A stretch of DNA of 64,000 nucleotides from an uncultured Candidatus Saccharibacteria bacterium (GTDB lineage Bacteria; Patescibacteriota; Minisyncoccia; Phycocordibacterales; UBA2100): positions 65,037-129,036 of the forward strand of contig CAYYEX010000001.1 in the NCBI GenBank assembly GCA_964471165.1. Direction: 5' to 3'. Positions within the stretch are counted from its first letter, which is position 1. Each line of letters starts with the position of its first letter. The notes under the pieces were generated by a model. That model was not told the origin of the DNA. It saw only the letters and a program-made list of their open reading frames with translations, and did no database searches. Shown here piece after piece: positions 4,209-21,225 of this stretch. Made by a program: the position numbers and the translations under genes.

Positions 4209-4212
4209 AGTT

Positions 4213-4737: not shown

Positions 4738-4833
4738 AGGCGACTGAGTTGTTCCATTCTTTCTATTCTAGCGCAATTCAAACCGGTCACTTGGTATGAA
4801 GTGCAAGTAGACATAGAATTGAAACAAGAGCCT

Positions 4834-6211: not shown

Positions 6212-6226
6212 AATGGTGCTGCCTGT

Positions 6227-6817
6227 TTAGCCTACATCCTCGACGAGCTTTTTCTCCCTCGTCCGGCGCGTGAGAATAAACAGCGTCATCAGTGAATTGG
6301 TCGTAATCATAGCAATTGAATGGAGCGTCGTGGCTATGTTGTAGGCCTGCAAAGAAAGCAACGCAAGAATATGCCGGAGCACGTTGGTACCGTACAAGAG
6401 CGGGGACTCAGTTTTTGGTTCCAACCATGTTTTACGAAGCGTTGGAATAAAGGCGACAACATCAATGGCAACAACCACAATAACCGACATTGTTGGGTCA
6501 TTCGTATAAATCCACGGAACAATACCTGCGAGCGCGATGGCAAGAAAGATTTTATCTGTTTTTGTTGGATTCTTGAATCCGTATTTGAGAGAAAGGAGAA
6601 AAATCATAATTGTGAAAATCTCTGAAGCGGCAGTAGGGAGTGCGCCAATGCCAGCACCTTTTGCAAGCTGCCCAAAGAACACAACGCCTGAGACAATCGA
6701 CCAAACAAACCACGTATACGCATGTGGCTCAATCCTCCCTTTCACCACATCAATCATGTACGGAACATTTCCCGCTATCGCGAGAAGCGCAGCAACAATG
6801 GCAATAGATTCTTTCAC
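6227..6817 (-). CDS. hypothetical polytopic membrane protein (196 aa)
   Basis: Six hydrophobic segments. No recognisable motif. Confidence 0.45.
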   Translation of the reverse strand: MKESIAIVAALLAIAGNVPYMIDVVKGRIEPHAYTWFVWSIVSGVVFFGQLAKGAGIGALPTAASEIFTIMIFLLSLKYGFKNPTKTDKIFLAIALAGIVPWIYTNDPTMSVIVVVAIDVVAFIPTLRKTWLEPKTESPLLYGTNVLRHILALLSLQAYNIATTLHSIAMITTNSLMTLFILTRRTREKKLVEDVG

Positions 6818-6828
6818 AAAGTAAGAAT

Positions 6829-7527
6829 CTATTTAGAAAGAACGAGCCAGTGGTGCTTGCAGCCGTAGTCTTTTCCGTTGAACTGTGTGACCTTTTCTAT
6901 CCGCTCCCACTTTTCTATCTTGAAGTCTTTGTAAACGCTACGTAATTCGTCCTCATCGAACGTCTTTTCAAATTTACCCGTCGGGTGGTGAAAAGCATTC
7001 TGCTGCTCTGCGGGGGCTGTCTGCATCATTTCTTTATGAAACTCGTCGTCGGTTGAAAGAAGATACGCCAGTAAATAACCACCTGGTTTGAGCACTCGAT
7101 GGAACTCACTGATTGCATATGCGCGGCCTTCGGGTGATTCGATGTCGGTCGAAGCAAAACAATCAATGGCAAAATCGAACGAATCCGTTTCGTAGTCCCA
7201 CGTTTTTGTGGCGTCTTGGACAATAAAATGTGCCCCCTCTATCTGAGCTGCAAATGCCCGTCGTTTGGCTTCTTCGATCGCAATCGGAGAAAAGTCGAAT
7301 CCATACATCTCAACACCCTTTGCAGCAAGCCACACAACATTTCTACCCTTGCCACACCCCATTTCAACACCGCGCACATTGTCTGTTCTACCTTCTGCCT
7401 TAAGGAGTCCCCAAAACTTTTTCACGCCACTCGAACCCTCATCGGAATCCATTTGTAATAAAACACTGGGAGAGGCATGCTCTGCATCCCATATTCTTTG
7501 CTGGTCCTCGTGTGTAAAGTTTTTCAT
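6829..7527 (-). CDS. class I SAM-dependent methyltransferase
   Basis: Motif I VEMGCGKGRN and motif post-I/II (YGFDFSP...DAT). Rossmann MTase fold. Confidence 0.75.
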   Translation of the reverse strand: MKNFTHEDQQRIWDAEHASPSVLLQMDSDEGSSGVKKFWGLLKAEGRTDNVRGVEMGCGKGRNVVWLAAKGVEMYGFDFSPIAIEEAKRRAFAAQIEGAHFIVQDATKTWDYETDSFDFAIDCFASTDIESPEGRAYAISEFHRVLKPGGYLLAYLLSTDDEFHKEMMQTAPAEQQNAFHHPTGKFEKTFDEDELRSVYKDFKIEKWERIEKVTQFNGKDYGCKHHWLVLSK

Positions 7528-7533
7528 AATTCG

Positions 7534-8139
7534 TTAAGACAAAGAATCGGAACTGGTTGATGATTCTAGAATAATGCTACAAATACTCTCAATAAGCAGC
7601 CCCGGGCCATCGGTTGAATTGTCCAGTACATGTGGACTGAATGACATGAATGTTTGCTCCTTGATATATGGCACGCTCCCCACTTCTTTTGGCACGAAGT
7701 CATCCGCCGATGCCTCGCCACGCAAGGAAAGACGCGAAATGCGCACCGCCTCGTCCACAGTGAGAAGAAATAAGTAGTCCGGTTTTCTGAGTGCGGTCTT
7801 CTTGAAATCTGGAACCAACGCTGCGTCCAGCCCACGCGCAATATGCTGGGCAACCGTGGAGTACACGTATCTGTCACAAATAACCCATGCATCCGTGAGC
7901 AGTGGCGTTATCTCTGCAGACTTGTTGAGTGCGCTCGCAACATAAAAAAAGAAACTCGCTTCCACGGTAGCATGAGCCTTTATGTATTCTTTTGCCGCAT
8001 TGAAGACACTGTTTCTATTCTCAATATCTTCATAGCGCACAGCGTTAATGCCGCGATTTTTGAGCTCGGTCACGAGAAGCGACGAAATTGTCGTCTTTCC
8101 GGTCCCATCAATCCCCTCGAATACTATTAATTTTCCCAT
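7534..8139 (-). CDS. tmk: thymidylate kinase
   Basis: MGKLIVFEGIDGTGKTT P-loop, DRY motif (CDRYVYS), lid region. Canonical dTMP kinase. Confidence 0.85.
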   Translation of the reverse strand: MGKLIVFEGIDGTGKTTISSLLVTELKNRGINAVRYEDIENRNSVFNAAKEYIKAHATVEASFFFYVASALNKSAEITPLLTDAWVICDRYVYSTVAQHIARGLDAALVPDFKKTALRKPDYLFLLTVDEAVRISRLSLRGEASADDFVPKEVGSVPYIKEQTFMSFSPHVLDNSTDGPGLLIESICSIILESSTSSDSLS

Positions 8140-9146
8140 AACATCTTTGCGATTTGGCGCGTGCGCTCCACGGTTTCTTTCGATGTTTGGCCATTCTCCT
8201 CCTCTCGAATGTATCGCGCCAAGCGTCGACCTACCTCTGCGTATGATTCCTGCATCACAACGTCTTCGTTGATGATGCCCGCCCTGAGTCGGTTTACGCC
8301 CATGCTGGTTGCTGAAGTAATCGTGCGCAGTAACGCGCCTTCTGCGGGAAATAGTTCTGACATTCTTCTCAGAATTTCGTAGTTTTCGATATCACGATTG
8401 TAGGAGACAGCACCACTTCCATGATTACTATCGTGCATTACGTGGTCAAAAAAGTCTGCAGAAGCCGCCATAAATGCCAGGTGGAGTGGATGGTGAATCG
8501 GGAGGTCAAACACGGGAAACGTTTCGAGTTTCAAATAAAATGGAATCGAACCTTTTTTCATTAGAAAATAAAGCTGGGACAGGCATACGTTGAACTTGCC
8601 ACTGCCTCCTCCAGGACTCAAGACGATTTGAATGGGCTTCACTGCATCAATAAACGAGTTTCTATCCAGATGATGAGCAATTTGAGTGGTGTTGGTATAG
8701 TCCTCTATCTCATAAAAGTAATGCACCTCGTTACCGCGAGCCTGAATGGTGCGGATAAAATTCTGAAGCCTTGTTTCGCTTTCCCAGCCCTGCAGCAGCC
8801 TCGTGAGCGCAACATGTTTTACTTTGAGGCCACGTTTTTCGAGCTCATTCAGTGAGCGCACAGTCTCGTCGTCGTATCGTGTTTTAAAATCACCACGTAT
8901 CCGTCCGCCAAGAATGTCCTTTGCAGATACACAAAAAATCGGCTCACTCTCGGGAAGCGAAAGGACAAGTTCGAGTTTCGCGTCCTCATGATACCCGGGC
9001 AGAACGCGAGCAGCGTGTCTGTCTTGTAGAATCTTCCCCCCAAACTCCACCACTAATGAATCCGTTTTACCCTCGACGGCAGCCCGAATGGCCGCTACTT
9101 GTGCCTCAATGTAGCGAGGTGTGTCGAACCCGATTCTATCGGTCAT
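8127..9146 (-). CDS. DUF1846 (UPF0371) family protein
   Basis: N-terminus ...LVVEFGGKILQDRHAARVLPGY resembles the conserved start of UPF0371/DUF1846 proteins. Shorter than typical members. Confidence 0.45.
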   Translation of the reverse strand: MTDRIGFDTPRYIEAQVAAIRAAVEGKTDSLVVEFGGKILQDRHAARVLPGYHEDAKLELVLSLPESEPIFCVSAKDILGGRIRGDFKTRYDDETVRSLNELEKRGLKVKHVALTRLLQGWESETRLQNFIRTIQARGNEVHYFYEIEDYTNTTQIAHHLDRNSFIDAVKPIQIVLSPGGGSGKFNVCLSQLYFLMKKGSIPFYLKLETFPVFDLPIHHPLHLAFMAASADFFDHVMHDSNHGSGAVSYNRDIENYEILRRMSELFPAEGALLRTITSATSMGVNRLRAGIINEDVVMQESYAEVGRRLARYIREEENGQTSKETVERTRQIAKMLWEN

Positions 9147-9202
9147 TGGGGAATCCTAGCACTGAGCACGTGGTTGGCGCCATTTTGTAGAGGTGTTTGA
9201 TG

Positions 9203-11089
9203 TTATCTGCAGATATTGATTTCTAAGTCGTCGTGGTAGTTCAGGCTCTGCAATTCAATCAAACGGGACAGTTTTTGGACCTCTACAGGATTTCCCATTT
9301 GCCACTTTTCAATTACAAGTATGTCCTCTCCTCCCTTTTCGATGCCAAGAATAACGGTTGAATGGATTTCTTGGAAAGATTCTCCGCGCCCGTTTGATAT
9401 AAGCAAAACACGCGACGCGGGCGCATTCGAAATACTTTCAATAATCTCTTTAACAATTCTGTTTGCGTGGTCTTTGGCCCCCTGCACACTCGCAAGTCCG
9501 CGAATCTCTGTGTGGGGAATCGCGATATGCTCGCCACTGTCATACATATCTTCTGTATATTCCTTCATGTCCTGCACAAATTCTTTCCCTTCGGCGCTCT
9601 CAAACATTTTGCTTACTTTTTCCTTGAATGCCTGTTCCCATTCATATTCCGACTCGAAATCCTCTAACTTTGGCTTCTCAACTGCCGGCGCAGTCGGTAC
9701 CGGCAAATCCAGGTCATCCCTGGCAATCGTGAGCATGAACGAATGGCAATCGTAGCTTTGCTCGTCATTCTTCGCATACCGAGCAGCAAGATGCTCGTTC
9801 AATGCGTTGAAATCTCTTGTCTCAAAACAATGTTCGGCTAATTTGTACGTTTCCTCAAGGCGCGGGGAAAGAGGCTCTAGGTATTCAACTTCGCCAGGAA
9901 TCGGTTCTGCTTCCGCGCGGCGAACACCCTCGCTGTCAAAGACATCGTCGTATGGCTGCCAACCGCGGTTACGCGTTTTCACAGACACGCCTGCACGTAC
10001 TTTAGTTCCACTATTGTCGTTCCAAAGTTTACTCAGATACTCCTGAGAATCCGGACGCAGGTCTTGAAAAAGCTTCCTGTTCGCCGCACCAATTGCGTTC
10101 TCACGCGAATTGTCTCCTGGCTTATTGTTGCTATTAACGAGCATTTGAGAGAGCTCGTGGTCGGAGGATTTGACAACACTTAATATTTTTTCCAAACCAG
10201 CATCTGTAAATGCATCCTTGATACTTTGGTCGAACAAATCACCGCCCCGGATATAGCCGCGCTTTATGCCCTCCCATATCTGTTCAACAGACGTTTCCGC
10301 AGCTTCTGCTAAATACTCCATAAAGATACGCACAAACCGCACTTCAGATTTGCGGTGAAATCCGTACTGAAAGAGCTCACTATTCGAACATGATATGTAC
10401 TTCTGCACATCATCCCGTGTTATCCCGAACCGGTCGGGACCGACTCTCCTCACGTATTCAACAAGCGTATCCTGCGTAATCATTTGGGTTATTCCCTCAT
10501 CGAGTATTTCCCCAAAAAACCGCCATGTTTCCAAAAGTAGGTTCTTTGTCTCTTCTTCATATACCCTATAGCCCGAAATTTCTCGCGTAGTGCTGTTTAT
10601 GAAGCTGGTGAGAAAGTGACCGATTTGCTCACGGCGCTGCAGTGCAATAGCGTGTGTCTCTTCGTGAATAACTATTTCCAACGCATTGATTCGCTTCAAT
10701 GCTTTAGTATCAATGCCAGGAACCGCAAAGTATCCTGTGCCCTTGAGTGGCTCTAAGTGCAGGGGCACACGCTCTAGCGCCAGGCCTTTCCCTTTACTAC
10801 GAGCGACTACAATTGTGTTGTCTTCCGGGTTGTAGTGCGCAGCGCCATACTCAATGTCTCCGACAAAAAAACGCTCTGCTCCAACAAAATTAATGTCTTT
10901 GGGATTCGCTCCACTCTTCTTATGCATTTCCTCAAAAATTTCACGAAGCGTTTTGAGGTCAACGGTTTCAAGAAAATTTGATACCCGCTCGTCTCTTTCG
11001 AGGCCGCGGCGTAATAGCTTTTCAACCGAAGGCGCCTTGCTATATCCGGTTCGCCCCGCTGGCCGTTCGTGTGATTGTGATTCTTTCAC
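9203..11089 (-). CDS. large acidic hypothetical protein with a single HExxH (HEETH) motif; possible zincin-like metallopeptidase domain
   Basis: 628-aa uninterrupted ORF. IVIHEETHAIAL contains HExxH. No other recognisable domain. Confidence 0.6.
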   Translation of the reverse strand: MKESQSHERPAGRTGYSKAPSVEKLLRRGLERDERVSNFLETVDLKTLREIFEEMHKKSGANPKDINFVGAERFFVGDIEYGAAHYNPEDNTIVVARSKGKGLALERVPLHLEPLKGTGYFAVPGIDTKALKRINALEIVIHEETHAIALQRREQIGHFLTSFINSTTREISGYRVYEEETKNLLLETWRFFGEILDEGITQMITQDTLVEYVRRVGPDRFGITRDDVQKYISCSNSELFQYGFHRKSEVRFVRIFMEYLAEAAETSVEQIWEGIKRGYIRGGDLFDQSIKDAFTDAGLEKILSVVKSSDHELSQMLVNSNNKPGDNSRENAIGAANRKLFQDLRPDSQEYLSKLWNDNSGTKVRAGVSVKTRNRGWQPYDDVFDSEGVRRAEAEPIPGEVEYLEPLSPRLEETYKLAEHCFETRDFNALNEHLAARYAKNDEQSYDCHSFMLTIARDDLDLPVPTAPAVEKPKLEDFESEYEWEQAFKEKVSKMFESAEGKEFVQDMKEYTEDMYDSGEHIAIPHTEIRGLASVQGAKDHANRIVKEIIESISNAPASRVLLISNGRGESFQEIHSTVILGIEKGGEDILVIEKWQMGNPVEVQKLSRLIELQSLNYHDDLEINICR

Positions 11090-11233
11090 ACGGCTATGAT
11101 ATCACCGCTCCTGTTAGTGATTGCTTCACCTGCAAGTACCATGCCTGCACCATACGAGGTTAGGCCTATGGCAACCTCCTGATATATAGTATTGCCATTG
11201 AGGTAAATACTTAAAAGAATAGGCGGCACCGCT

Positions 11234-11473
11234 ATGGATGAAACAGAACAGAATGAAGCAGAACAAACAACCGACAGTAACGGCAACACATTGCAAAATG
11301 GCGATTCGGTCCTCGTTATCAAGGACCTTAAGGTAAAGGGAAGTTCTGTCACGTTAAAAAAAGGAACCAAGGTAAAGAACATCCGTTTGACCGATTCTCC
11401 GGACGAGATAGAGGGCAATGTCGACAGCGTTCGCGGCCTTGTTCTTAAAACAGAATTCGTCAAAAAAGCGTAG
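11234..11473 (+). CDS. PhnA-domain protein (79 aa)
   Basis: [33 protein letters not shown]...KTEFVKKA matches the conserved C-terminal PhnA/YjdC domain. Confidence 0.7.
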
Positions 11474-11476
11474 CGG

Positions 11477-11537
11477 GAAGAGCCGCAAGGTTGTGAAGAG
11501 CCGCAAGGTTGTGAAGAGCCGCAAGGTTGAACCTTGC
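11477..11537. repeat. 18-bp tandem repeat (gaagagccgcaaggttgt) x3 ending in palindrome GCAAGGTTgaACCTTGC
   Basis: Direct reading: units at 11477-11494, 11495-11512 and 11513-11530. The last unit merges into a 7-bp-arm hairpin followed by GATTTTG. Confidence 0.8.
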
Positions 11538-11738
11538 GATTTTGACTCTACCCGCCCCCAATGAGATTTATTGCGTGAGCGACAGCGCGGCGCCGAGATA
11601 GTACGGCCAAATAACTACAGCAAGCACCCCGGACCAAAAACTTAGGTGCAGGTACCCGATTGTAAAAAGCCATGCGGCAACCCAGAAACCCCCTGATAAC
11701 GTATGATGCTCAATTTTTATTTTTTCCATACGTCTTTA

Positions 11739-12086
11739 CTATACTCCTTTTTCCCGTATACGTTGGTCACTCACTAAGAAAAGAATCCCTGTGAGCAGAA
11801 AAGGCGCACATAACATTGCGTTCACCCAAAACGAGTTACCGAGCAGAATGAAAGGAATGAGAGATACCATAATGAACATGTATCCTCCCAGTCGCTCGTC
11901 CTTCCAAGCCACGACGAGAACAGTGGCTAGCACTAGACTTGGGATATTGTGAACAAGAAAACCAACGAGTAAATTCGTGAGAGATACACCTGTTTCAAAT
12001 ACATCGAGCGAAAACAGGCTAATGAAAAGAATACCGAGGATTCCCAATATTCGGGGTGCCCAGTATAGCGCTTTGAGCATATCCAT
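11739..12086 (-). CDS. hypothetical 4-TM membrane protein
   Basis: Hydrophobic ORF with no competing frame. Confidence 0.45.
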   Translation of the reverse strand: MDMLKALYWAPRILGILGILFISLFSLDVFETGVSLTNLLVGFLVHNIPSLVLATVLVVAWKDERLGGYMFIMVSLIPFILLGNSFWVNAMLCAPFLLTGILFLVSDQRIREKGV

Positions 12087-12132
12087 ATGATATCAGAAAC
12101 ACACCGTGGGTCGGCTTCCCCCCACCTCGAAT

Positions 12133-12840
12133 TTAACCGGCAGAATTTAACTCCTGGTCGATTCTTGCGATAAGATTCACTGCCAATTGCTTCAAGGCAT
12201 CGAACTCCTGATTATTAAAACGAGTCCGCTCGCTTTCCAGTCTTTCAGCGAGCACGGTCAACGTCTGCCGAAGCATGTAAGGGCTCCAGTAAATATAGGG
12301 AGTACCATCAATCATATACAAATTACTTTTCTCGTCGCCCTCCTTCTTTCCGTACACATACTGCTCGCCCTTAGCGAGGTCTGCAAGAAAAGACGAGTGT
12401 TTATCGTAGGCATTCGTATAATAGCGAATCAACTTTCTTCCAAGATCTAAATACGCGTCGCTCTCTTGCTGCATATTCGACTGTTCATCTGGCGTTACAT
12501 TTGAAATCACCGCAAAGACTTCCTTTCCGCTCTTGTCACCAATTCGTGCTTCTGCCACGACGAACGATATCGGCGAATCAATACCATACCCGCGAAGCTC
12601 ATCAAAATGCCTCTTAGATAGCGCTGCAAATTCTTCCGCTGTGACTTCACCTGACTCTTTCGCGTGCCACCGCCTTTTTTCAATCATGCTCTCCCAGTGA
12701 AGTGGGCGTATGACGAGGTCTTTCCGATTCTCTAATTGCAGTAGTAAGTCATCTTTCGTTTTATCCCAATGTTCAACATGAGGCACGAGCCTGTGCGAAA
12801 ATGCGGTCACCTCTGGAATCTTTTTTAATCTCTCGCTCAT
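12133..12840 (-). CDS. hypothetical protein (235 aa); first gene below the cassette-like array
   Basis: Clean ORF with soluble composition. Preceded (5' on minus) by a copy of the conserved intergenic box. Confidence 0.5.
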   Translation of the reverse strand: MSERLKKIPEVTAFSHRLVPHVEHWDKTKDDLLLQLENRKDLVIRPLHWESMIEKRRWHAKESGEVTAEEFAALSKRHFDELRGYGIDSPISFVVAEARIGDKSGKEVFAVISNVTPDEQSNMQQESDAYLDLGRKLIRYYTNAYDKHSSFLADLAKGEQYVYGKKEGDEKSNLYMIDGTPYIYWSPYMLRQTLTVLAERLESERTRFNNQEFDALKQLAVNLIARIDQELNSAG

Positions 12841-12930
12841 TCACATCATCGTATCAAGAATTGCAGTGAGTCGTCGACACTCTTCAAGACACGCCGTGGC
12901 CAACTCAAGTTAAACGGTGGTTCGCATACA

Positions 12931-12960
12931 TTGCTGAGTGCTCGGTACGAAGTTGGAACT
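12931..12960 (-). repeat. conserved intergenic box, copy R6 (degenerate)
   Basis: gctgagtgctcggtacgaagttggaact; shares ...ggtacgaagttggaac with the other copies. Confidence 0.7.
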
Positions 12961-12970
12961 ATTTTACAGC

Positions 12971-13654
12971 CTAGTGGTGGGAATCTCGAATCGTGAGAAA
13001 TGACTGCCATGTAATCCGCAAGATTACGATAGTGATAATCAAGCCGATGACCGGGTCGGCAATCTGGAGTCCGAAAAAGACAAGCGCAGCACTCGCAACA
13101 ACGGCAAGACTCACATACCCGTCGGCGTGCGCATGCGCGCCATCTGCGATAAGCGCAGGGCTATTGAGTCGTTTCCCCGCACGTGTGCGTATCACGGCCG
13201 CAACTTCGTTACCCGCGTACCCGATGATTCCAGAAATGAGCAAGGCAAACAAATGGTCAACGGTTTGCGGATGAATAAAGCGTAAAATTGCCTCGTAACC
13301 GGCGACGCATGCGCTCACAAAAATTATAAATACAACGAAGTATCCTGCGTATTTTTCCATCACCTTGCTTTGTAACAAAAAAGCTGCGCCAAGCGGCAGA
13401 GCGGTCAGCGCATCTCCAAAGTTATGAATCAGGTCAGCAAGTAGCGCGATGGAATTTGTCGAGAAAAAGATAATCGCTTGGATTCCTGCCGTGGCCAAAA
13501 GTACTACAAGACTCAAGCTTACCGCCCGTACCCCCTCTTTTGATCGCGTGATGGATTCGTGCACCAACCCATGGCTGTGCCCATGTTCGTCGTGCGAATG
13601 ATGGCCATCATGAGGATGGTCGTGATCGTGATTGTGTTCGTGAGAATCGTGCAT
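12971..13654 (-). CDS. cation diffusion facilitator (CDF) family transporter, TM domain only (227 aa)
   Basis: His-rich N-terminus (HDHDHPHDGHHSHDEHGHSHG), 5-6 TM helices, LADLIHNFGDAL motif. Lacks the usual ~80-aa C-terminal cytoplasmic domain. Confidence 0.7.
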   Translation of the reverse strand: MHDSHEHNHDHDHPHDGHHSHDEHGHSHGLVHESITRSKEGVRAVSLSLVVLLATAGIQAIIFFSTNSIALLADLIHNFGDALTALPLGAAFLLQSKVMEKYAGYFVVFIIFVSACVAGYEAILRFIHPQTVDHLFALLISGIIGYAGNEVAAVIRTRAGKRLNSPALIADGAHAHADGYVSLAVVASAALVFFGLQIADPVIGLIITIVILRITWQSFLTIRDSHH

Positions 13655-13680
13655 ATTCAGATCAGAATACCTTAAAAAAC

Positions 13681-13733
13681 TCGACTGGGTGTTTGGTTTA
13701 GCCTGAGCTTGTCGGACGGGACAAAGTTGGAAC
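13681..13733 (-). repeat. conserved intergenic box, copy R5 (with 22-nt insertion)
   Basis: tcgactgggtgtttggt[ttagcctgagcttgtcggacggg]acaaagttggaac. Confidence 0.75.
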
Positions 13734-13738
13734 TTTTC

Positions 13739-14467
13739 TTAAACCTCAGGACTGAACTTATTACGGCTCCAGTTCCATAGAACGGGATGCATTTCGACGG
13801 GAGACACGGTGCCACCATTAAGCAAATCTTTCCATACCTCGGCTACTTCCAACGACGTCATGGTCGGTTTTGCAAGCCCGAGTTTGACCGAACACTGCAA
13901 AACATGCGTGTCCGGAATGATGGATATCTCTGACATATTTTTAAACTTTGCGTCCGTGTAATGCGAAAGGATGTAAAGCCAATAGTTCGCCATCTTCGGT
14001 CCGCTGATATAGGGAAAGTCTTTCCGCATATCTTGCTGAATGATTTTATGGATATTCACAACATCCCAGTCAGCAGTTGTAAAAAGTTCACGTGGATCGC
14101 TTTTGAAATGGGAGCTGAACGCGTTCGATACAGCCATCCATATATCAGTATGCTTATTGAGTTGTAGCGCGAGCTTATGCTTCAGTAAGTCTTTTTGCAC
14201 TTTCTCCCGCGCAGCCTTTGCTACAATTTCCGGAAAGAAAAGATAATTTGTTTCCGAGTCATTCCATGTTTTAAGTGCTGCCGCCCACATTGCCGGCGAT
14301 TGTCGTTGAAAATTGATACTCGGCGGCAATGTGAAATAGAGATAATTTTCTCGACTCCCCTTTTCTAAGCCGGGATTTACTTCATGTTGCGCAAGCATGG
14401 GAATTGCGCCGTCCAAAAAAAGTTGGTGCAGTTTGAGAACCCGCTCCAACTGTTCCGACTTATTCAT
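13739..14467 (-). CDS. hypothetical protein; weak HhH-GPD-like signature
   Basis: Start set to the internal Met (MNKSEQ...) because the upstream part of the ORF overlaps the conserved intergenic box. ...ISIIPDTHVLQCSVKLGL is reminiscent of the PxDTHVxR helix-hairpin-helix motif of EndoIII-type glycosylases. Confidence 0.4.
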   Translation of the reverse strand: MNKSEQLERVLKLHQLFLDGAIPMLAQHEVNPGLEKGSRENYLYFTLPPSINFQRQSPAMWAAALKTWNDSETNYLFFPEIVAKAAREKVQKDLLKHKLALQLNKHTDIWMAVSNAFSSHFKSDPRELFTTADWDVVNIHKIIQQDMRKDFPYISGPKMANYWLYILSHYTDAKFKNMSEISIIPDTHVLQCSVKLGLAKPTMTSLEVAEVWKDLLNGGTVSPVEMHPVLWNWSRNKFSPEV

Positions 14468-14483
14468 AGAATTACTATACCTG

Positions 14484-14516
14484 ACCGGACTGGGTGTTTG
14501 GTACGAAGTTGGAACC
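14484..14516 (-). repeat. conserved intergenic box, copy R4
   Basis: gaccggactgggtgtttggtacgaagttggaacc, starting 3 nt after the upstream gene's stop codon. Confidence 0.85.
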
Positions 14517-14520
14517 GGAG

Positions 14521-14985
14521 TCAAGTATTTACAGGAATGCCCTTCACAAGCTTTTTCCCATCTGAGGTAAGGATGGTCTTCCCCGCAGGGTTGGCCCAGT
14601 CCGTAAAACGCCACCAGATTGGAGTGAACATAAAGAAAACATCGTCCGGATGTTTACCTTCCTTACTGGGGAACTTAGCAAAATATACCTTTTTCAACAT
14701 TTCTTCGTCCGCGCTAAGTAACCGCGCCACACCGTCCAACTGAAAGGTTTTCTCTTTACCTCCCGGTACTTCTTCTAGACCAATTACAAAAGAAGCCCGC
14801 ACCAACTCCTTTTGAAGCAGAGGTTCTACTTTTCTGTATGTTGGGCTTGTGAGGAATATAAACGTCAAAGGGTCGTCATGGTGAGCAAAATGCACAGTAG
14901 CCGCATGTGGAGAGCCATCGGTCATCTCGACAGCTATCACGCCGACCCGCTGAGTGTTTATGTATGCAAGAACTTCAGGATTCAT
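14521..14985 (-). CDS. pyridoxamine 5'-phosphate oxidase-like (PNPOx/FMN-binding split-barrel) family protein
   Basis: N-terminal ...AYINTQRVGVIAVEMTDGSPHAATVHFAHHDD... pattern typical of general-stress PNPOx-like proteins. Confidence 0.6.
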   Translation of the reverse strand: MNPEVLAYINTQRVGVIAVEMTDGSPHAATVHFAHHDDPLTFIFLTSPTYRKVEPLLQKELVRASFVIGLEEVPGGKEKTFQLDGVARLLSADEEMLKKVYFAKFPSKEGKHPDDVFFMFTPIWWRFTDWANPAGKTILTSDGKKLVKGIPVNT

Positions 14986-15005
14986 ATTTATGTTCCACTT
15001 TAATT

Positions 15006-15034
15006 TGCTGGGTGTTTGGTGCGAAGTTGGAACC
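15006..15034 (-). repeat. conserved intergenic box, copy R3
   Basis: tgctgggtgtttggtgcgaagttggaacc, flanked by short inverted repeat GTTCCA / TGGAAC. Confidence 0.85.
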
Positions 15035-15039
15035 TTTTT

Positions 15040-15468
15040 TTAAGACACAGACTCAAACGTCGGGTCATCTTTCGTAAGAATCTCCAATACGTCATCATCG
15101 CCTAGCAAGAAATGCTTCATACCCAAGCAATCATTAACCCCTCGATTCTCTGCATTTAGCCAGTCGATGTAGGGACTTGCAGTTGTATAGCGCAGACCGG
15201 ATATAGGCGACGGACTTTTACTGATGTTCCATGTATCCAAAAGATACGACTCGTTCGTAAATCGGTACGCAAACGGACCCGATATTCTTTCAAAAGTAAT
15301 CTTAATCGTTTCAGCAGATACATTACTTCGATCTTTGAGTTCCACGATCAGACTCACATCATCAATGGACACTTTTTCTATCTTCCACATCGGTACGAAC
15401 TCCCCTTCAAAAGACTTGTTCTCCCAAATGATTTGTCTTGGATTTTCCATGTTCATATCTCTGCTCAC
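15040..15468 (-). CDS. hypothetical protein (142 aa; GTG or internal ATG start)
   Basis: Clean ORF bounded on both sides by copies of the intergenic box. Confidence 0.45.
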   Translation of the reverse strand: MSRDMNMENPRQIIWENKSFEGEFVPMWKIEKVSIDDVSLIVELKDRSNVSAETIKITFERISGPFAYRFTNESYLLDTWNISKSPSPISGLRYTTASPYIDWLNAENRGVNDCLGMKHFLLGDDDVLEILTKDDPTFESVS

Positions 15469-15480
15469 ATGTTACCAAAA

Positions 15481-15512
15481 CCGGACTGGGTGTTTGGGAC
15501 GAAGTTGGAACC
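15481..15512 (-). repeat. conserved intergenic box, copy R2
   Basis: ccggactgggtgtttgggacgaagttggaacc, 5 nt after the upstream gene's stop codon. Confidence 0.85.
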
Positions 15513-15515
15513 CCA

Positions 15516-15917
15516 TTAAAGAACGACCTCCCCAGTTTCTCGTAACTTTTTGAGAAACTCTTCGTCCCGAACTACCACCCTAAACTCGGACGGGTCCGGT
15601 AGTTTCTCAAGATTCGGATTACTGTATGTGACAATCTCTAATATGATAACTCTTCCATCTACGACATGTAGAAGTATTTCTAGCGGTCCGCCATCCCGGG
15701 GATTAATTAGACCCTCTACCGGGACCCTGTCTAGGACGTTCGCTAGCACCTGTGACTTCGTAAGAATATCTATAGTAAGTGACTTATCATCCCACTCTCT
15801 TACTTCGCAATCAGATATTTGTTCGCGAATTGCGTCGCGACCCGGGAAGTCATTCTCGAGCAGCTTATCGAGAACCCTTATCTCATCTTGATTTAATGGT
15901 CGATAATTGTCAGACAT
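15516..15917 (-). CDS. hypothetical acidic protein (133 aa)
   Basis: Clean ORF, no motif recognised. Confidence 0.45.
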   Translation of the reverse strand: MSDNYRPLNQDEIRVLDKLLENDFPGRDAIREQISDCEVREWDDKSLTIDILTKSQVLANVLDRVPVEGLINPRDGGPLEILLHVVDGRVIILEIVTYSNPNLEKLPDPSEFRVVVRDEEFLKKLRETGEVVL

Positions 15918-15919
15918 AT

Positions 15920-15978
15920 CATTGCTTAAAAAACTGGCTGGGCGTTTGGTACGAAGTTGGTACTACATTTAAGCAATG
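15920..15978 (-). repeat. conserved intergenic box, copy R1, embedded in an 11-bp perfect inverted repeat
   Basis: CATTGCTTAAA-aaactggctgggcgtttggtacgaagttggtactaca-TTTAAGCAATG. Confidence 0.85.
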
Positions 15979-15984
15979 ACAACG

Positions 15985-16299
15985 CTACGTCCGGATTGTC
16001 TCCACGTACCCTGGTTTCTTAAAGGCTGTCCAAAGGAGGCCGATGGAAATAGCTGTGAGAAAAATGGCCATGGCAATATTTGGCCCCGGTACATGTTTTG
16101 TCTCAAGGCATGTGGGACCCCGATATTTTCCCCCAGGCGTCATACGCACACAAATTTCGTGATGATCAAATTTGAATGCATATATGGACACAACAAAGCA
16201 AGCGAGGGCAATGATCACAAGCAAGCTCTGCAGAGACCTCGGCACTTTCCTACTCCGCAACATTACATGGATGATGCGCCCGCACGGATGAAAAATCAA
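15985..16299 (-). CDS. hypothetical 2-TM membrane protein (104 aa)
   Basis: Hydrophobic segments; preferred over the competing plus-strand ORF 15976..16332, whose composition is poor. Weak call. Confidence 0.3.
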   Translation of the reverse strand: MIFHPCGRIIHVMLRSRKVPRSLQSLLVIIALACFVVSIYAFKFDHHEICVRMTPGGKYRGPTCLETKHVPGPNIAMAIFLTAISIGLLWTAFKKPGYVETIRT

Positions 16300-16300
16300 T

Positions 16301-16317
16301 CTGGGGGACTTGGAATC
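16301..16317 (-). repeat. 17-nt exact copy of tRNA-Gln 3' end (GATTCCAAGTCCCCCAG), 182 nt downstream of the tRNA
   Basis: ctgggggacttggaatc at 16301-16317 equals 16499-16515. A second degenerate copy ...cttgtcccccag lies at ~16330-16345. Confidence 0.85.
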
Positions 16318-16498
16318 CCCATCGACTCATAATATCAGCCGTCGCTTCTGGGGGACAAGGAGCGCTCGCATGAGCTCGCTTTTTGAGAACCCACGGTTCT
16401 CAACGTGTCTTCGCACTGCTCTCCTCCACGGGAAACTACCGTTTCCCGCCCCCTTCACTTCCAAGTCCCGCAGGACTCGTTCATTTCATTCTCTCGTG

Positions 16499-16569
16499 CT
16501 GGGGGACTTGGAATCGAACCAAGATACGCAGCTTCAAAGGCTGCTGTCCTACCGTTAGACGATCCCCCA
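16499..16569 (-). tRNA. tRNA-Gln (anticodon UUG)
   Basis: Reverse complement TGGGGGATCGTCTAACGGTAGGACAGCAGCCTTTGAAGCTGCG...GGTTCGATTCCAAGTCCCCCAG. U1-A72 pair, G73 discriminator, anticodon loop CTTTGAA. CCA not encoded. Confidence 0.85.
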
Positions 16570-16717
16570 ATGCGCCTAAAGATAGCAGTTTCGAGCAAAA
16601 GTACGAAACCTAGCCTTCCCAGGTGCCTTATTGCATATCCCACCTGATGGGCTATTCTGAGGCAGTCGTCGGGCCTCACAGCCCGATTTTTGCGTATTTG
16701 CAATGGAGGGACTTCTC

Positions 16718-18226
16718 ATGCCACTCATGCGATTTGCACTACCGCCGAAACAGTTCTTCGAAAATTTGGCAATCACAGGCGACAGCGTCCCATTCGACGA
16801 AGTCCTCCTCGTGCCTCGGTATTCCGAGGTCCTTCCTGGTGAAGCGGATCTTTCCACCCGGATTACACGTGATCTGCGAATGGGTCTTCCCTTCCTTCCC
16901 GCTGCAATGCCCACCGTCACAGATGTGAGGATGGCCATCGCATGCGCGGAGCGCGGAAGCATGGGTATCATCCCCAGGCAACAGGACCCTGAAAAGCAGT
17001 CCGAGAAAGTCTCGACCGTCAAAAACGTGCGTAGCGGTTTCGTAAAGACGCCGCGAACGCTTCGAGCAGACAAGACTCTTGCCGAGCATCGCAGCGATCA
17101 GGATCTGCGGCTCGCCGCGGGAAAAAATGTCTTCCAATATCATCCCGTGGAAGACTCCGACGGCTCGCTTGTCGGATATCTCGACGACACACAGCTCGTC
17201 TTTCATCGCGACGACACCAAGACGATTGGTGAAATCATGACGCCAATCAGCGACAAGTATACGGTGAAGTCCGATACGACTCCGCAACAGGCTTACAAGA
17301 CACTGCTCGACCGGGCAATCCCGATTATCTTTCGGGTCCGCGGAAAGCATCTGACCGGCATGTATCTGCTCAGCGGCCTCGAGCGCAAGTTCGACAAGGC
17401 AAGCCGGACCGCCAACGTCGACAAGAATGGTCGCTTCGTGGTTGGCGCGGCGATTGGGGTCGGGACAAAGGAAATCGATCGCGGACTTCTGCTCCTGTCG
17501 AAGGGGGCGGATTTGATTGTTGTGGATGTCGCTCATATTCACACCAAATCTGGCCTCGAGACGGTGAAAATTCTGTCGAAAGAAACTCCCAACGTTCTGA
17601 CAGGAAATATCGCAACCGATGAGGCCGCACGCGACCTCATCCGCGCAGGAGCCGCTGGATTGAAAGTTGGCATCGGTCCGGGTTCAATCTGCACTACTCG
17701 TGCGGTTACCGGCAGCGGCGTGTTGCAATTGACTGCCCTGTACTGGGTCGCTCGATATGCAAAGCGATTCGGCATCCCGGTTTGCGCGGATGGAAACATC
17801 GTCGTTTCCGGCAGCCTCGCAAAGGCGTTCGGGGTCGGTGCAGAAAGCGGCATGTGCGGCAGTCTGTTCGCTGGAACAGATGAGTCACCCGGTGAGCCCT
17901 ACATCAACGCCAAGGGCCATAAGGTGAAGCGATACGACGGCGCCGGCTCAATGAGCGCAATGAACAGCGGCTCCGGCGAAATCAGGTACCGGCAGAAAAC
18001 TGTTCCCGAGGGTGTCGAGAGCGAGGTCCCGTACAAGGGCCCCGTTTCTCAGGTCATCACCAACCTCGAGGGTGGCCTGCAAGCTGCTTGCGGAATGATT
18101 GGTGCAGCCAACATTCCGGCAATGCAGAAGCAGGCGCTTCTCACTCGGATGAATGCGGCTGGTCAGCGTGAATCAAACGTTCACGACGTGACCGTGGTCG
18201 GCGATCGCGTTATCGGCTTGATGTAA
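16718..18226 (+). CDS. guaB: IMP dehydrogenase / GMP reductase family protein
   Basis: Catalytic loop VGIGPGSICTTR, ADGNIVVSGSLAKA, GSLFAGTDESPGE. RBS GGAGGG 7 nt before the ATG at 16718. The CBS-pair region looks divergent. Confidence 0.8.
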   Translation: MPLMRFALPPKQFFENLAITGDSVPFDEVLLVPRYSEVLPGEADLSTRITRDLRMGLPFLPAAMPTVTDVRMAIACAERGSMGIIPRQQDPEKQSEKVSTVKNVRSGFVKTPRTLRADKTLAEHRSDQDLRLAAGKNVFQYHPVEDSDGSLVGYLDDTQLVFHRDDTKTIGEIMTPISDKYTVKSDTTPQQAYKTLLDRAIPIIFRVRGKHLTGMYLLSGLERKFDKASRTANVDKNGRFVVGAAIGVGTKEIDRGLLLLSKGADLIVVDVAHIHTKSGLETVKILSKETPNVLTGNIATDEAARDLIRAGAAGLKVGIGPGSICTTRAVTGSGVLQLTALYWVARYAKRFGIPVCADGNIVVSGSLAKAFGVGAESGMCGSLFAGTDESPGEPYINAKGHKVKRYDGAGSMSAMNSGSGEIRYRQKTVPEGVESEVPYKGPVSQVITNLEGGLQAACGMIGAANIPAMQKQALLTRMNAAGQRESNVHDVTVVGDRVIGLM

Positions 18227-18251
18227 CGCAATCGATCAGGGCATTGTGCGG

Positions 18252-18291
18252 TCGCCGGACTTAAATGTTCCGGCGGCCGCTTTCTTTTTTT
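18252..18291. terminator. bidirectional Rho-independent terminator between guaB (+) and the L,D-transpeptidase (-)
   Basis: GCCGGAC-ttaaatgt-TCCGGC hairpin then GGCCGCTTTCTTTTTTT. Confidence 0.65.
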
Positions 18292-19189
18292 ATGACTGAA
18301 CAATGACTAATGTGCCCTGTGGCGTCCACTCGTAAAGTTTACGGGCGAGATAAAGCGGCATGTTCACACATCCGTGAGAATGCTGGAATCCGAACTCATC
18401 ATGCCAGTACGCCCCGTGAATCGCCGCTCCGTCATCGGTAAAATACATCGTCCACGGTACTCCCGGCAAATCATATTCATCTGATGTCTGTCCAGGAATC
18501 GGACCTTGCATGTATCGACTGGGCGTCTTTCTGAATATTTCATATGCACCAAGCGGAGTCGGGATACCGTCGAGACCCGTTGAGACGTCTGCCAGCATGA
18601 ACAGCTTGTCGCCGTCGTACGCATAGAGTGCCTGCTCGGAAAGATCAATGATAATCCGTTTATTATCGTCACGCCTCTCGCTCTCTCTGAAATCATGCGG
18701 TGCTGGCATTTCAAAGCTTTGCACAGCATCGCGCGCGACATAAAGCTCGGCACCAAGTCGCTCCGGATAGCGAACGAATTCATCGAAGGTGATTTTGTAC
18801 CAATCGCGATAATTATTTCGTACGACTTTGTCGACTCGCAGTACCACGCCTTTGCGCAGTTTCATGACCGCGGGGTAATCAGTTCCGGGACCGGAACGCA
18901 CATTGATACACTCACCCACGAATGCCCAGTTGCAGGTGTCGATTGCTTCGACGTACGTAATCACGCCCTCGCTGGTCTGTCGCAGCGGCATCATCGCATT
19001 TTGCACCGCACTCACGGCTTGCGGATTATTCTCGATAATCGTCACTTTGCCGCCTGAACGAGAAATGCGAAACGCGTTGCTGTCTTCGTTGGCTACGCGA
19101 TCAAGAAATCCAACCGCGCTAAAAAGCAGCAGCATCACAACAATCGCAATGACTAAACTGCGCGTTGAAGTAACACCCGATTGAGGCAT
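18290..19189 (-). CDS. L,D-transpeptidase (YkuD domain) with N-terminal TM and SH3-like region
   Basis: Catalytic motif HGAYWHDEFGFQHSHGCVNM (H...SHGC). Confidence 0.8.
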   Translation of the reverse strand: MPQSGVTSTRSLVIAIVVMLLLFSAVGFLDRVANEDSNAFRISRSGGKVTIIENNPQAVSAVQNAMMPLRQTSEGVITYVEAIDTCNWAFVGECINVRSGPGTDYPAVMKLRKGVVLRVDKVVRNNYRDWYKITFDEFVRYPERLGAELYVARDAVQSFEMPAPHDFRESERRDDNKRIIIDLSEQALYAYDGDKLFMLADVSTGLDGIPTPLGAYEIFRKTPSRYMQGPIPGQTSDEYDLPGVPWTMYFTDDGAAIHGAYWHDEFGFQHSHGCVNMPLYLARKLYEWTPQGTLVIVQS

Positions 19190-19220
19190 TCGATAAGAAT
19201 AGCAATCTTTGGGAGTATTT

Positions 19221-20105
19221 TTAGTCCCGCACCGTTACCGGTGTGCCTAGGTCGGCCCATTCGTACAACTCTTTTGCTTTTGGTGGGGGCAAGTTCACGC
19301 AACCGTGCGACCACTGCTGACCAAAGCTGTCGTGCCAATATGCCCCGTGAATCGCTCCACCTTCGTTTGTGAAATACATCGTCCACGGTACACCGGGTAA
19401 ATCAAACTCCTGGTCGCTAATGCCCGGCACCGGCCCCTGCATGTAGCGTGTTGGTGTCTTGCTAAAAATCAGAAACTGTCCGCGCGGTGTCGGCGTATCA
19501 TCAAGTCCGGTCGAAATAGTTTGTTCCATAAACAACGTCTCGCCGTCATAGGCGAAGAGCTTTTGCTCGGAACGGTCTACCAGTATTCGTTTTGCTGTAA
19601 CTGGCTTTGCGTCGTCCGCTAGTTTTTCTGCTGGCAAATGGCTAAACAGCTGCACCACATCTGCCGCCACATACCATTCATGCGACACTCGTTCTGGATA
19701 ACGCACCCATTCATCGAATGTAATTTTGTACCAATCGCGGTCATCACCGTGAATTACTTTCTGTACACGAAGCACCACGCCCGTGCGCAACGTTGCCACG
19801 GCTGGGTACTCCACTCCGGGGCCCGTGCGCACATTCACACAGGCGCCTTCATAATGAGGGGCGCAGCTATCAAGCACTTCGATGTAGTCGAGTGGTTGCG
19901 GCGGCAGTATCGGTGCGGGTTCTCTGGCAAATGATTCGTCAGAGCCCGCGGCCGCAACTTGTTCACTAGCCTCTTCTGTTGAAGCAGCAATAATCTCCTG
20001 CGGACGGTCAGACGTAAAATAGAGAATCGGCATAACAATCACCAGGCCTACGAGAGCCGTAAAACCTATTTTGCCTTGTTGTGAAAATTCCATGCCGCCG
20101 TGCAC
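19221..20105 (-). CDS. L,D-transpeptidase (YkuD domain), tandem paralog
   Basis: HGAYWHDSFGQQWSHGCVNL. Domain order identical to the neighbouring gene. Confidence 0.8.
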   Translation of the reverse strand: MHGGMEFSQQGKIGFTALVGLVIVMPILYFTSDRPQEIIAASTEEASEQVAAAGSDESFAREPAPILPPQPLDYIEVLDSCAPHYEGACVNVRTGPGVEYPAVATLRTGVVLRVQKVIHGDDRDWYKITFDEWVRYPERVSHEWYVAADVVQLFSHLPAEKLADDAKPVTAKRILVDRSEQKLFAYDGETLFMEQTISTGLDDTPTPRGQFLIFSKTPTRYMQGPVPGISDQEFDLPGVPWTMYFTNEGGAIHGAYWHDSFGQQWSHGCVNLPPPKAKELYEWADLGTPVTVRD

Positions 20106-20169
20106 CGCTGGTGTCGGACATTAGTAGCATACCATCGGCCTCCCTCCAAAAAAGATGAGTTTTGTGGAG

Positions 20170-21225
20170 TTACGACGACGTAACGCCCGAGGCCGAGCAG
20201 ATATCTATGATTGCAAGCTCGAGCGGCAGATGTGGTACTGCCGCGTACGCCATTTTTCCGTATGCATCCAACATCAAACGCAATGTATCTGAATTAATGC
20301 CCGGCTCTTTTGAAAGACTGCTCGCGACACCACGGTCCGCCTCGGTAAGCTCTTGTGATAACTCACCGGCAAGATTTGGTGCATAGCGCATCAGAAGCAC
20401 AACGCGCAGTCGGTGAATCAAAAGTTTTGCAAGCGTTCGTGCATCCATGTTGTCTTTCACAGCCTGCTGCATCGCTGTAAGCGCCGCTGGGGCATCTTTT
20501 TTTCCTATCGCTACCAGCAACGAGCGTACAAGCTCACCGCGTGGAGCTCCGGATACTGCCTCTACATCAGAGATATCAATTTTCTTGCCGGCGGAAACGG
20601 CGAGCACCTTTTGCAAAATCGAGAGCGCATCACGAAACGAACCCTCGGCAAGCAATGCAACCAATTCAGCCCCTGCTTTGTCGAGCGTAAAGCCCTCTTT
20701 TACAGCAACGTCGCTCACCGTTTGTGCAAGCATTTCTCGCGATGGTTGTTTGAACGTGTAAATCTCGCACCGAGATTGAATAGTCTCCGGCACGCGGTCA
20801 CGCTCAGTGGTAGCAAGCACAAAAATGGCGTGCGCTGGTGGCTCCTCTAATGTTTTTAAAAATGCGTTCCACGCTTCTTTAGTGAGCATATGCGCTTCGT
20901 CGATGATGTAGAACTTGTACGGTGATTCAAACGGGAGTGCATAGACACCTTCGCGTAGTTCGCGGATGTCGTCGATGCCGCGATTCGATGCTGCATCCAT
21001 TTCATACAAATCCTTTTCCGATACACCGAGCTCGCGCGCAAGGATACGCGCCACCGAAGTTTTGCCTGTTCCGCGTGTTCCGCAGAACAAATACGCGTGT
21101 CCAATTTTCTTGTTCTTGATGGCCTTTTCGAGAACTCCTGTTACCTGCTCTTGCCCGCGCACCTCATCAAAAACAGAGGGCCGGTATTGGCGGTAGAGCG
21201 TTTGGTGTTTTGCCTCCTTTGACAT
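20170..21225 (-). CDS. dnaX: DNA polymerase III subunit gamma/tau (short form)
   Basis: Walker A CGTRGTGKTS, conserved YRP motif, AAA+ clamp-loader organisation. Confidence 0.85.
   Translation of the reverse strand: MSKEAKHQTLYRQYRPSVFDEVRGQEQVTGVLEKAIKNKKIGHAYLFCGTRGTGKTSVARILARELGVSEKDLYEMDAASNRGIDDIRELREGVYALPFESPYKFYIIDEAHMLTKEAWNAFLKTLEEPPAHAIFVLATTERDRVPETIQSRCEIYTFKQPSREMLAQTVSDVAVKEGFTLDKAGAELVALLAEGSFRDALSILQKVLAVSAGKKIDISDVEAVSGAPRGELVRSLLVAIGKKDAPAALTAMQQAVKDNMDARTLAKLLIHRLRVVLLMRYAPNLAGELSQELTEADRGVASSLSKEPGINSDTLRLMLDAYGKMAYAAVPHLPLELAIIDICSASGVTSS

Follow-up and report, generated by a model that had tools for sequence, protein, structure and literature searches.

The window analyzed in this work is a stretch of 64,000 nucleotides (nt) on contig CAYYEX010000001.1 of an uncultured Candidatus Saccharibacteria bacterium, and the subject of the analysis is a tRNA-Gln gene within it, together with displaced copies of the 3' end of that gene and the array of single-gene cassettes that follows. 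The intact gene, tRNA-Gln(UUG), is located at 16498-16569 on the minus strand (ARAGORN; Rfam RF00005, 61.9 bits) and has an IMP dehydrogenase gene and the cassettes as its neighbors. From the tRNA into the downstream region, the G+C content changes from ~0.54 to ~0.46. The last 17 nt of the gene (16499-16515, minus strand), which extend from G57 of the T-loop to the discriminator G73, recur on the same strand at 16301-16317, where all 17 positions match. The repeated sequence is CTGGGGGACTTGGAATC on the plus strand and GATTCCAAGTCCCCCAG on the minus strand. When up to three mismatches are allowed (<=3), the 17-mer has 3 matches in the window compared with 0.14 expected, and none of 100 shuffles reached this number. 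The exact copy claimed by the first-pass annotation is therefore far above chance. No further copy of this kind that could delimit a larger island was found in the window or in L037, a contig that reaches 7.5 kb to the left of the window. The gene does not encode CCA (CAG|CAC), and the missing CCA at 16496-16499 fits a trailer that was replaced by inserted DNA. In L015-L018, which have a tRNA identical or nearly identical to that of the window, and in L002, CCA is encoded directly after the discriminator.

The distance between the tRNA and the displaced copy is 181 nt, and this spacer is without an open reading frame (ORF). Nearest to the gene is an inverted partial tRNA-Gln 3' end, TTCACTTCCAAGTCCCGCAG (16454-16473, plus strand), which is arranged tail-to-tail with the tRNA at a distance of 25 nt. 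It has one mismatch over 15 nt to the tail of the window's own tRNA, and none of 1000 shuffles produced a local alignment as good; extended by eye, it covers 20 nt with 2 mismatches to the L005-type allele. Its acceptor sequence, CCCGCAG, is the allele present in the tRNA-Gln genes of L005 and L026, not the one in the window. Next is a hairpin on the minus strand (CGGGAAAC-GGTA-GTTTCCCG, 16429-16448, identified by sequence inspection and folding) that is preceded by GGGGG. A perfect 9-bp hairpin, TTGAGAACC-gtg-GGTTCTCAA, is located at 16383-16403 on the minus strand (the loop reads cac on the plus strand) and has no T-run after it on either strand; on the tRNA strand, no hairpin of the spacer is followed by a T-run. 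A direct partial copy of the tail, the 14-mer TCCTTGTCCCCCAG (16348-16361, minus strand), overlaps the palindrome GAGCGCTC (16360-16367) and is nearer to the allele of L012 and L002 (TCCATGTCCCCCAG) than to the window's own. The exact 9-mer within it, GTCCCCCAG, is of marginal significance, as 52 of 1000 shuffles were equal in local alignments between the tRNA and the spacer. The spacer ends in a 29-nt block, AGCGACGGCTGATATTATGAGTCGATGGG (16318-16346, minus strand), which contains an extended -10-like sequence (TGATATTAT, with TATTAT at 16329-16334) facing the downstream cassette; for promoter-like matches in this region, 1 was found and 1.1 were expected. The final GGG of this block and the GA of the 17-mer can pair with TCCCC. 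Because the inverted and the direct fragments both bear foreign alleles, the spacer is best read, judging from its sequence, as a mosaic left by recombination events, with part of the DNA coming from other lineages.

These observations agree in part with the first-pass annotation, which had described a structured spacer of ~160 nt with a hairpin, a palindrome, and two downstream copies of the tRNA 3' end. The measured length is greater, as given above. The structure is confirmed, as the spacer read as a minus-strand RNA folds more stably than shuffled sequences (z = -3.1; 1 of 200), and both the hairpin and the palindrome are present. The two copies of the 3' end are genuine partial copies, although the total is three and one of them is inverted. 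The second, degenerate terminus exists at 16348-16361 rather than at ~16330-16345, and the 9-nt match by which it would be recognized is only marginal. The D-loop-like fragment AACGGTAG is an exact match to the tRNA D-loop at 16436-16443, inside the hairpin at 16429-16448, but an 8-mer match of this kind is at chance level (~0.35 expected by our own estimate). The fragment described as T-arm-like, CTTGGAAGTG, is actually the reverse complement of the tRNA 3' end and belongs to the inverted tail copy.

The 3.4 kb after the tRNA consist of six single-gene units of 363-805 nt, all on the tRNA strand and each ending in a 26-27-nt motif (GGTTCCAACTTCGTACCAAACACCCAG). The first ORF cassette (15938-16300, minus strand) encodes a small protein with two transmembrane helices, with its ATG at 16262, its stop codon at 15985, and its motif at 15938-15963. 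Five further cassettes (12934-15511, minus strand) encode, in this order, a DUF6984-like protein, a protein of unknown function, a PNPOx protein, another protein of unknown function, and a cation-efflux protein. The copies of the motif (GTTCCAACTTCGNNCCAAACNCCCAG) in these cassettes are at 15486-15511, 15008-15033, 14490-14515, 13685-13733, and 12934-12959. The fifth motif copy of the array (13685-13733) is split between its halves by a 23-nt insertion (GTCCGACAAGCTCAGGCTAAACC-like), and the sixth (12934-12959) is degenerate; none was found at a greater distance from the tRNA. A stop codon and the motif behind it are 4-24 nt apart, and it is another 20-30 nt to the next start codon, in many cases with promoter-like hexamers ahead of it. 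The junctions between cassettes fall directly after CCCAG, which is also how the tRNA itself terminates.

The most informative comparison is with L012, a locus from a Saccharibacteria metagenome-assembled genome (MAG), and with L019 from a different sequencing run. For the first ORF cassette of the window, L012/L019 contain a counterpart with 77.6% identity, and the two become homologous precisely at CCCAG|ATTGATTTTT. To the left of this shared cassette, the window has the tRNA-like 17-mer whereas L012 has a degenerate motif. Therefore, the 17-mer takes the place of an inter-cassette site, and a direct junction between the first ORF cassette and the tRNA probably existed in the past. When all fetched loci were compared with one another by blastn, the 29-nt block plus the 17-mer (16346-16301, 46 nt) were 89% identical to positions 4309-4353 of L012, and L019 contains this L012 sequence too. 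The L012 block is then followed by GAGTCCATGTCCCCCAG, which is the tail of L012's own tRNA-Gln and is unlike that of the window at 2 positions. In the window and L012 alike, the tail copy starts to match the tRNA from the same base of the T-loop, and the downstream neighbors beyond the tail copy are unrelated between the two. In each of the two genomes, the tail copy thus corresponds to the tRNA of its own host, preceded by a conserved block and followed by a host-specific flank. Because this is the order of an element end, a displaced host tRNA tail, and an old host flank, the arrangement may be read as an attR junction.

The position of the shared block differs between the two genomes. In L012, the block and tail are part of the array itself, at a distance of 3.5 kb from the tRNA. 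They are immediately preceded by a canonical motif and then 130 nt of other ORF-less sequence, and two cassettes are located between them and the homolog of the window's first ORF cassette. This ORF-less stretch of L012 is strongly structured (z = -4.75), lacks CCCAG at the left edge of the block, and has no equivalent of the 5' tRNA-like part of the spacer. A third case is provided by L002, in which a decayed copy (19 of 25 nt) of the T-arm and tail of its own tRNA-Gln is present 701 nt downstream of the tRNA. The sequence after this copy is homologous to what directly follows the tRNA in L012; therefore, the L002 tRNA received an insert of one gene, which belongs to the peptide deformylase family. 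Overall, same-strand partial tail copies are present in three of the nine loci compared, with an expectation of 0.03-0.12 per locus. Separately, L015/L017 contain a 10-nt inverted tail copy (GGGGGACTTG) ~50 nt downstream of tRNA-Gln, which resembles the inverted fragment of the window and has unrelated surroundings.

The association between the motif and tRNA-Gln extends well beyond these genomes. An exact-pattern scan for the motif in one genome per species (185,579 species) identified 12 loci, among which 10 have titles of Patescibacteria lineages (Paceibacterota, Saccharibacteria, Nomurabacteria, and "Patescibacteria group") and 2 have generic titles. The 8-kb piece examined contains a tRNA gene in eight of these 12 loci; this is always tRNA-Gln, located upstream of the motif and co-oriented with it, and no other tRNA is present. 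A profile search found at least 11 motif copies in L002 and 8 in the contig of L015/L017, in which the 3' half of the tRNA is identical to that of the window. Consequently, the claim that the tRNA marks the upstream end of a cassette-like array is true for the window and for many Patescibacteria genomes. Homologs of the PNPOx cassette are also numerous, and every named one is from the Patescibacteria phyla. Among the four long contigs with such a homolog, three have tRNA-Gln upstream on the same strand; the canonical motif and partial tRNA copies are absent from the lineages of these contigs.

The motif is nearly invariant across several Patescibacteria lineages (L002, L009, L012, L015/L017, and others). 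Lineage variants occur, such as GTTCTAACATCGTCCCAGACCCCCAG in L015/L017, and AACATCG and AACTTCG types can be distinguished. The motif is asymmetric and contains CCAAC and CCAAAC as a direct repeat with a spacing of roughly one helical turn; every copy has the same orientation. The motif regions have no dyad symmetry, and neither strand forms a hairpin consistently (z from -2.2 to +1.8). A role as a DNA-uptake sequence was rejected, as the motif is confined to the 3.4 kb beside the tRNA and absent from the other 60 kb. Derivation from the tRNA tail was also considered, given the likeness between TTCG-TACCAA-ACACCCAGC in the motif and TTCGATTCCAAGTCCCCCAGC in the tail. However, the similarity is weak (p about 0.02) and tRNA-Trp reaches an equal score, such that a common origin is not claimed. 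In L010, two motif copies that differ at 5 positions are each followed by the same sequence for at least 45 nt. A promoter-like module of ~50 nt (…CTCTATTGACG…) occurs in 3-4 copies in that locus (2304-2384, 3224-3302, 3703-3783, and also 1-39), and the modules at 2304 and 3703 are directly behind motif copies that differ from each other. In L026, another Patescibacteria array downstream of tRNA-Gln(CUG) (8691-12655) has a different inter-cassette repeat, composed of a short hairpin, GCATATTCGCCAA, and a TATAAT-like box. Therefore, tRNA-Gln hotspots exist with lineage-specific junction sequences.

Based on these patterns of repeats and junctions, the tail copies are probably att-type scars of site-specific insertion, and the 3' end of tRNA-Gln is likely to have served as a chromosomal docking site at which foreign DNA was inserted serially. 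A recombinase, probably of the tyrosine type and encoded elsewhere in the genome, would insert circular DNA at the end of the tRNA-Gln gene. The incoming circle would bring a look-alike of the tRNA tail, by which the gene is rebuilt while the original tail is left displaced as a partial copy. Under this mechanism, the 17-mer at 16301-16317 would be the displaced, attR-like tail, and the last 17 nt of the tRNA itself would be the copy on the attL side. The 181 nt between them may be a tiny ORF-less insert or a remnant of one, and the 198-nt unit composed of these 181 nt and the 17-mer may represent the latest event at this locus or what remains of it. The direct and inverted fragments with foreign alleles would point to repeated events with foreign donors. 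The last 29 nt of the spacer would correspond to an element end that recurs in another genome, and may act as an outward promoter for the next cassette. The expected empty site is a tRNA ending in ...CCCCCAG|ATTGATTTTTCATCC, and the expected circle junction is ...GTCGATGGGGATTCCAAGTCCCCCAG|CACGAGAGAATG.

Several observations weigh against this interpretation. First, two crossover positions are implied, one in the T-loop for the 17-mer and one after CCCAG for the motif cassettes. The gene may be the target of two systems, or else the tail copy may itself be a portable site. The similarity between the motif and the tRNA tail is also weak and equaled by tRNA-Trp, as described above. Second, the conserved 46-nt block was found in two genomes only, and neither an excision product nor an empty site was observed. 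Third, the ORF-less 181-nt insert contains no recombinase gene and, to our knowledge, is far below the size of any autonomous integrative element. Pfam searches detected no recombinase in the ~24 kb downstream of the tRNA (the four ORFs at 14466-16262 by motif search only) or among the top 25 families of the 65 larger ORFs from related loci, and the 3.5-kb repeat-bounded segment of L012 has no integrase match in Pfam. A six-frame motif search of the 64-kb window for tyrosine and serine recombinases also returned none, and the same is true for the additional 7.5 kb of contig to the left of the window. As for possible donors, the 17-mer, the spacer hairpin, the 29-nt block, and the motif each have 0 matches in viral contigs, and blastn searches found only phage tRNA-Gln genes among GenBank phages and nothing among plasmids.

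A further point against the interpretation concerns the assembly, because independent Logan contigs do not bridge 16449-16541. Over 11677-16448, Logan assemblies from two other sequencing runs are identical to the window at every position, and over 16542-20631 one is, such that 16449-16541 is supported by the source assembly alone, a 308-kb metagenome contig in ENA. The unbridged part between the contig ends at 16448 and 16542 is 93 nt (contigs L020, L021, and L001). The stop at 16542 is presumably the break expected in a k = 31 graph when the tRNA is common to other species in the sample, and the stop at 16448 might mean strain-level structural heterogeneity inside the spacer. A genome scan through the neighboring IMP dehydrogenase found no close relatives (the best homolog outside the source organism is 45% identical); therefore, a strain-level comparison of the exact locus is not possible.

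Alternatively, the spacer may be an ORF-less mobile cassette that has a mimic of the tRNA tail as its site, inserts after CCCAG, and brings along an outward promoter and a secondary docking site. We regard this as a possibility to be taken seriously, if a rather doubtful one. The 17-mer occupies the place of the motif, and the next cassette begins right after the CCCAG of the 17-mer. In L012, the block and tail are inside the array after a canonical motif, and the two cassettes behind the block are what would be expected if cassettes insert there. The extended -10-like sequence in the block (TGATATTAT in the window and TGATATCAT in L012) and the strong structure of both ORF-less stretches (z = -3.1 and -4.75) are also consistent with such a cassette. 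However, an imported site is not expected to equal the host tRNA in two genomes that differ at 2 positions. Moreover, the promoter-like match is at chance (1 compared with 1.1 expected), the L012 block is without CCCAG at its left, and only two genomes show the arrangement.

Exchange without any dedicated recombinase is another explanation, in which cassettes would be swapped by natural transformation and homologous recombination, with tRNA-Gln and the motif as short homology anchors. Competence genes are common in Patescibacteria. Natural competence has been demonstrated in Saccharibacteria, and their genetic manipulation through natural transformation is reported in PMC10633639. This explanation agrees with the failure to find a recombinase near any of the arrays, and junctions at the end of the motif are also expected from homology-bounded exchange. 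It is nonetheless unlikely, as replacement by double crossover makes no direct repeats of a tRNA tail and the near-invariance of an asymmetric 27-nt sequence across phyla is left unexplained. Furthermore, anchors of 17-27 nt would be no longer than the minimum that RecA-dependent exchange usually requires.

The stable folding of the spacer (z = -3.1) could instead indicate a structured RNA that is transcribed together with tRNA-Gln, for instance a trailer, an element for processing or termination, or a small RNA, in which case the repeats would be by-products. The inverted copy can pair with the tRNA 3' end over 23 nt with 83% complementarity, and L015/L017 also have a 10-nt inverted tail copy. 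We consider this explanation quite improbable given that the spacer matches no Rfam family, its hairpins lack a T-run on the tRNA strand, and the sequence is not kept in contigs with the same tRNA. In addition, pairing with the tail would compete with folding of the tRNA.

The first-pass annotation had favored a shredded or duplicated tRNA-Gln, which corresponds to a decayed tandem duplicate that persists as a pseudo-tRNA or tRNA-like RNA. Within 16348-16453, GGGGG, AACGGTAG, and GTCCCCCAG do appear in the same order as in a tRNA, and the GGGGG/CCCCC pairing in the minimum-energy fold of the spacer resembles an acceptor stem. However, a permissive Rfam covariance scan (E<=10) of 15900-16720 and ARAGORN both found only the real tRNA, with no second tRNA or pseudo-tRNA in the spacer. 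The 8-mer is at chance level and the 9-mer is marginal, the region is more than twice (>2x) the length of a tRNA, and the L012 counterpart has no 5' tRNA-like part. Five metagenome contigs with an identical tRNA-Gln 3' end (46 nt) diverge totally directly after ...CCCCCAG and lack the spacer. Because they diverge right after the tail, the tRNA-Gln locus does not include the spacer as a conserved element. Two outcomes had been named beforehand as refuting the tRNA-like reading, namely the lack of a covariance-model match and the lack of conservation across relatives. The former was observed, and the latter applies to part of the spacer, as 46 nt are kept in the Saccharibacteria MAG. A duplicate is thus largely refuted by the covariance scan and very improbable. 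Finally, an assembly artifact or chance can hardly explain the repeats, for even though the Logan contigs leave 16449-16541 uncovered, the 17-mer copy, the 29-nt block, the 14-mer, and both hairpins are exact in two other assemblies, the stop at 16542 may be attributed to a k = 31 graph with a tRNA shared between species, the chance expectation for the 17-mer is negligible, and the same architecture is present in L012/L019 from unrelated samples.

Integrative elements directed at tRNA genes leave partial-tRNA direct repeats (attL and attR) and can stack in tandem at one tRNA. Williams, in 2002, is said to have described an identity block from the T-loop to the discriminator as a classical sublocation within tRNA genes; the block in the window starts inside the T-loop. 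Like prophages, genomic islands, and integrative and conjugative elements, the locus has a 3'-end repeat in the same orientation, a regenerated intact tRNA, and an accessory region of lower G+C content downstream. Unlike these elements, it has no integrase in or near the repeat-bounded segment, the length of which is only 181 nt in the window compared with 701 nt and 3.5 kb in the two other genomes, and the rest of the island consists of single-gene units that are split by a different, highly conserved 26-27-nt site. Partial tRNA genes are documented scars of integration (PMC9897764), and in the islands of Prochlorococcus, successive integrations push older elements inward and scatter partial tRNAs (Hackl et al., preprint 10.1101/2020.12.28.424599). 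The locus resembles these islands and the tycheposons in its location next to a particular tRNA, in the inward displacement, and in the scattered partial tRNAs and degraded remnants. As in tycheposons, the cargo consists of small adaptive modules in a streamlined genome. However, tycheposons have their own tyrosine recombinase and replication genes and use several tRNAs, whereas here a single tRNA (Gln) is used across the superphylum, with single-gene units and, at most of the sites, a conserved motif that is not tRNA-like. No tycheposon-type recombinase and no replication or packaging hallmark genes were found among the annotated genes of the window array, L037, and the related loci (top 25 families for 65 ORFs).

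The similarities to integrons and to clusters of attC sites lacking integron-integrases (CALINs) are also extensive. These include ordered and mostly co-oriented single-gene cassettes, a conserved site at the 3' end of each with the junction at the very end of that site, ORF-less cassettes, and a primary insertion point that is fixed at the array head. In contrast to integrons, no intI is present beside the insertion point, the primary site is the end of a tRNA gene, and the cassettes seem to carry their own promoters. The motif was rejected as an integron attC, as it has no imperfect palindrome, no consistent hairpin (z from -2.2 to +1.8), and no RYYYAAC/GTTRRRY core. The array works like an integron or a tycheposon-seeded island, yet fails the defining tests of both. 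A third comparison is with Xer-dependent modules, such as integrative mobile elements exploiting Xer (IMEX) at dif and the pdif modules of Acinetobacter plasmids, which are likewise non-autonomous, use a recombinase encoded elsewhere (as may be the case here), and are bounded by sites of ~28 nt. A spacer of 6-8 nt separates the two inverted arms of dif-type sites, and successive pdif modules have opposite orientations. The motif was rejected as a site of this type because it is asymmetric, without dyad symmetry or hairpins, and all copies are co-oriented. GC skew showed no sign of a replication terminus.

Patescibacteria, for which Candidate Phyla Radiation is another name, account for a large share of bacterial diversity and have genomes of ~1 Mb with few recognizable mobile elements, and we know of no described mechanism by which they acquire accessory genes. 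At this locus, one tRNA gene is a shared hotspot where single-gene modules, many of unknown function, are stacked and common to distant lineages. A partial-tRNA repeat by itself is an ordinary and well-understood scar, but the scars in the window lie at the head of an apparently undescribed cassette platform that is anchored by tRNA-Gln. We found no description of a tRNA-Gln-anchored, motif-delimited array in Patescibacteria in the full-text literature, the coverage of which was limited and does not amount to proof of novelty. Under the interpretation as insertion scars, the tail copies at 16301-16361 and 16454-16473 would be direct traces of insertion at the tRNA end with donors from other lineages. 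If confirmed, this interpretation would provide a concrete and testable model of horizontal gene transfer in Patescibacteria, as well as a sequence handle (tRNA-Gln plus the motif) for mining accessory genes from metagenomes, and possibly a site-specific integration tool for the few genetically tractable Saccharibacteria.

More tentatively, and with somewhat less than even confidence, tRNA-Gln could be the equivalent of attI in an undescribed cassette system found throughout Patescibacteria. Such a system would combine single-gene cassettes that have their own promoters and enter at the final bases of the tRNA-Gln gene, an asymmetric and non-folding site of 26-27 nt ending in CCCAG, a recombinase encoded elsewhere, and a tail copy with a 29-nt leader as a portable module for secondary docking or promoter function. 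If true, it would be a third type of cassette platform beside integrons and Xer/dif modules, and a main route of gene flow between the phyla of the Candidate Phyla Radiation.

Beyond the motif-delimited cassettes, small accessory genes that are mostly on the minus strand continue for more than 24 kb from tRNA-Gln without copies of the motif (window positions 1-12900 and L037 positions 1-10000, with 7.5 kb left of the window). These genes include those for MsrA, YbaK-like, VIT1, PAP2, MGMT-like, TfoX_N, NUDIX, HD, methyltransferase, and dTMP-kinase-like proteins. The run is interrupted by a gene with a ParB_N domain (2507-3739, plus strand, G+C 0.57). Three tandem copies of an 18-mer, GAAGAGCCGCAAGGTTGT, are present in an intergenic part of the accessory region (11477-11530). 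Elsewhere in the window, two adjacent paralogs that encode SH3 and YkuD (L,D-transpeptidase) domains are located at 18290-19189 and 19221-20105 and share ~65% DNA sequence identity.

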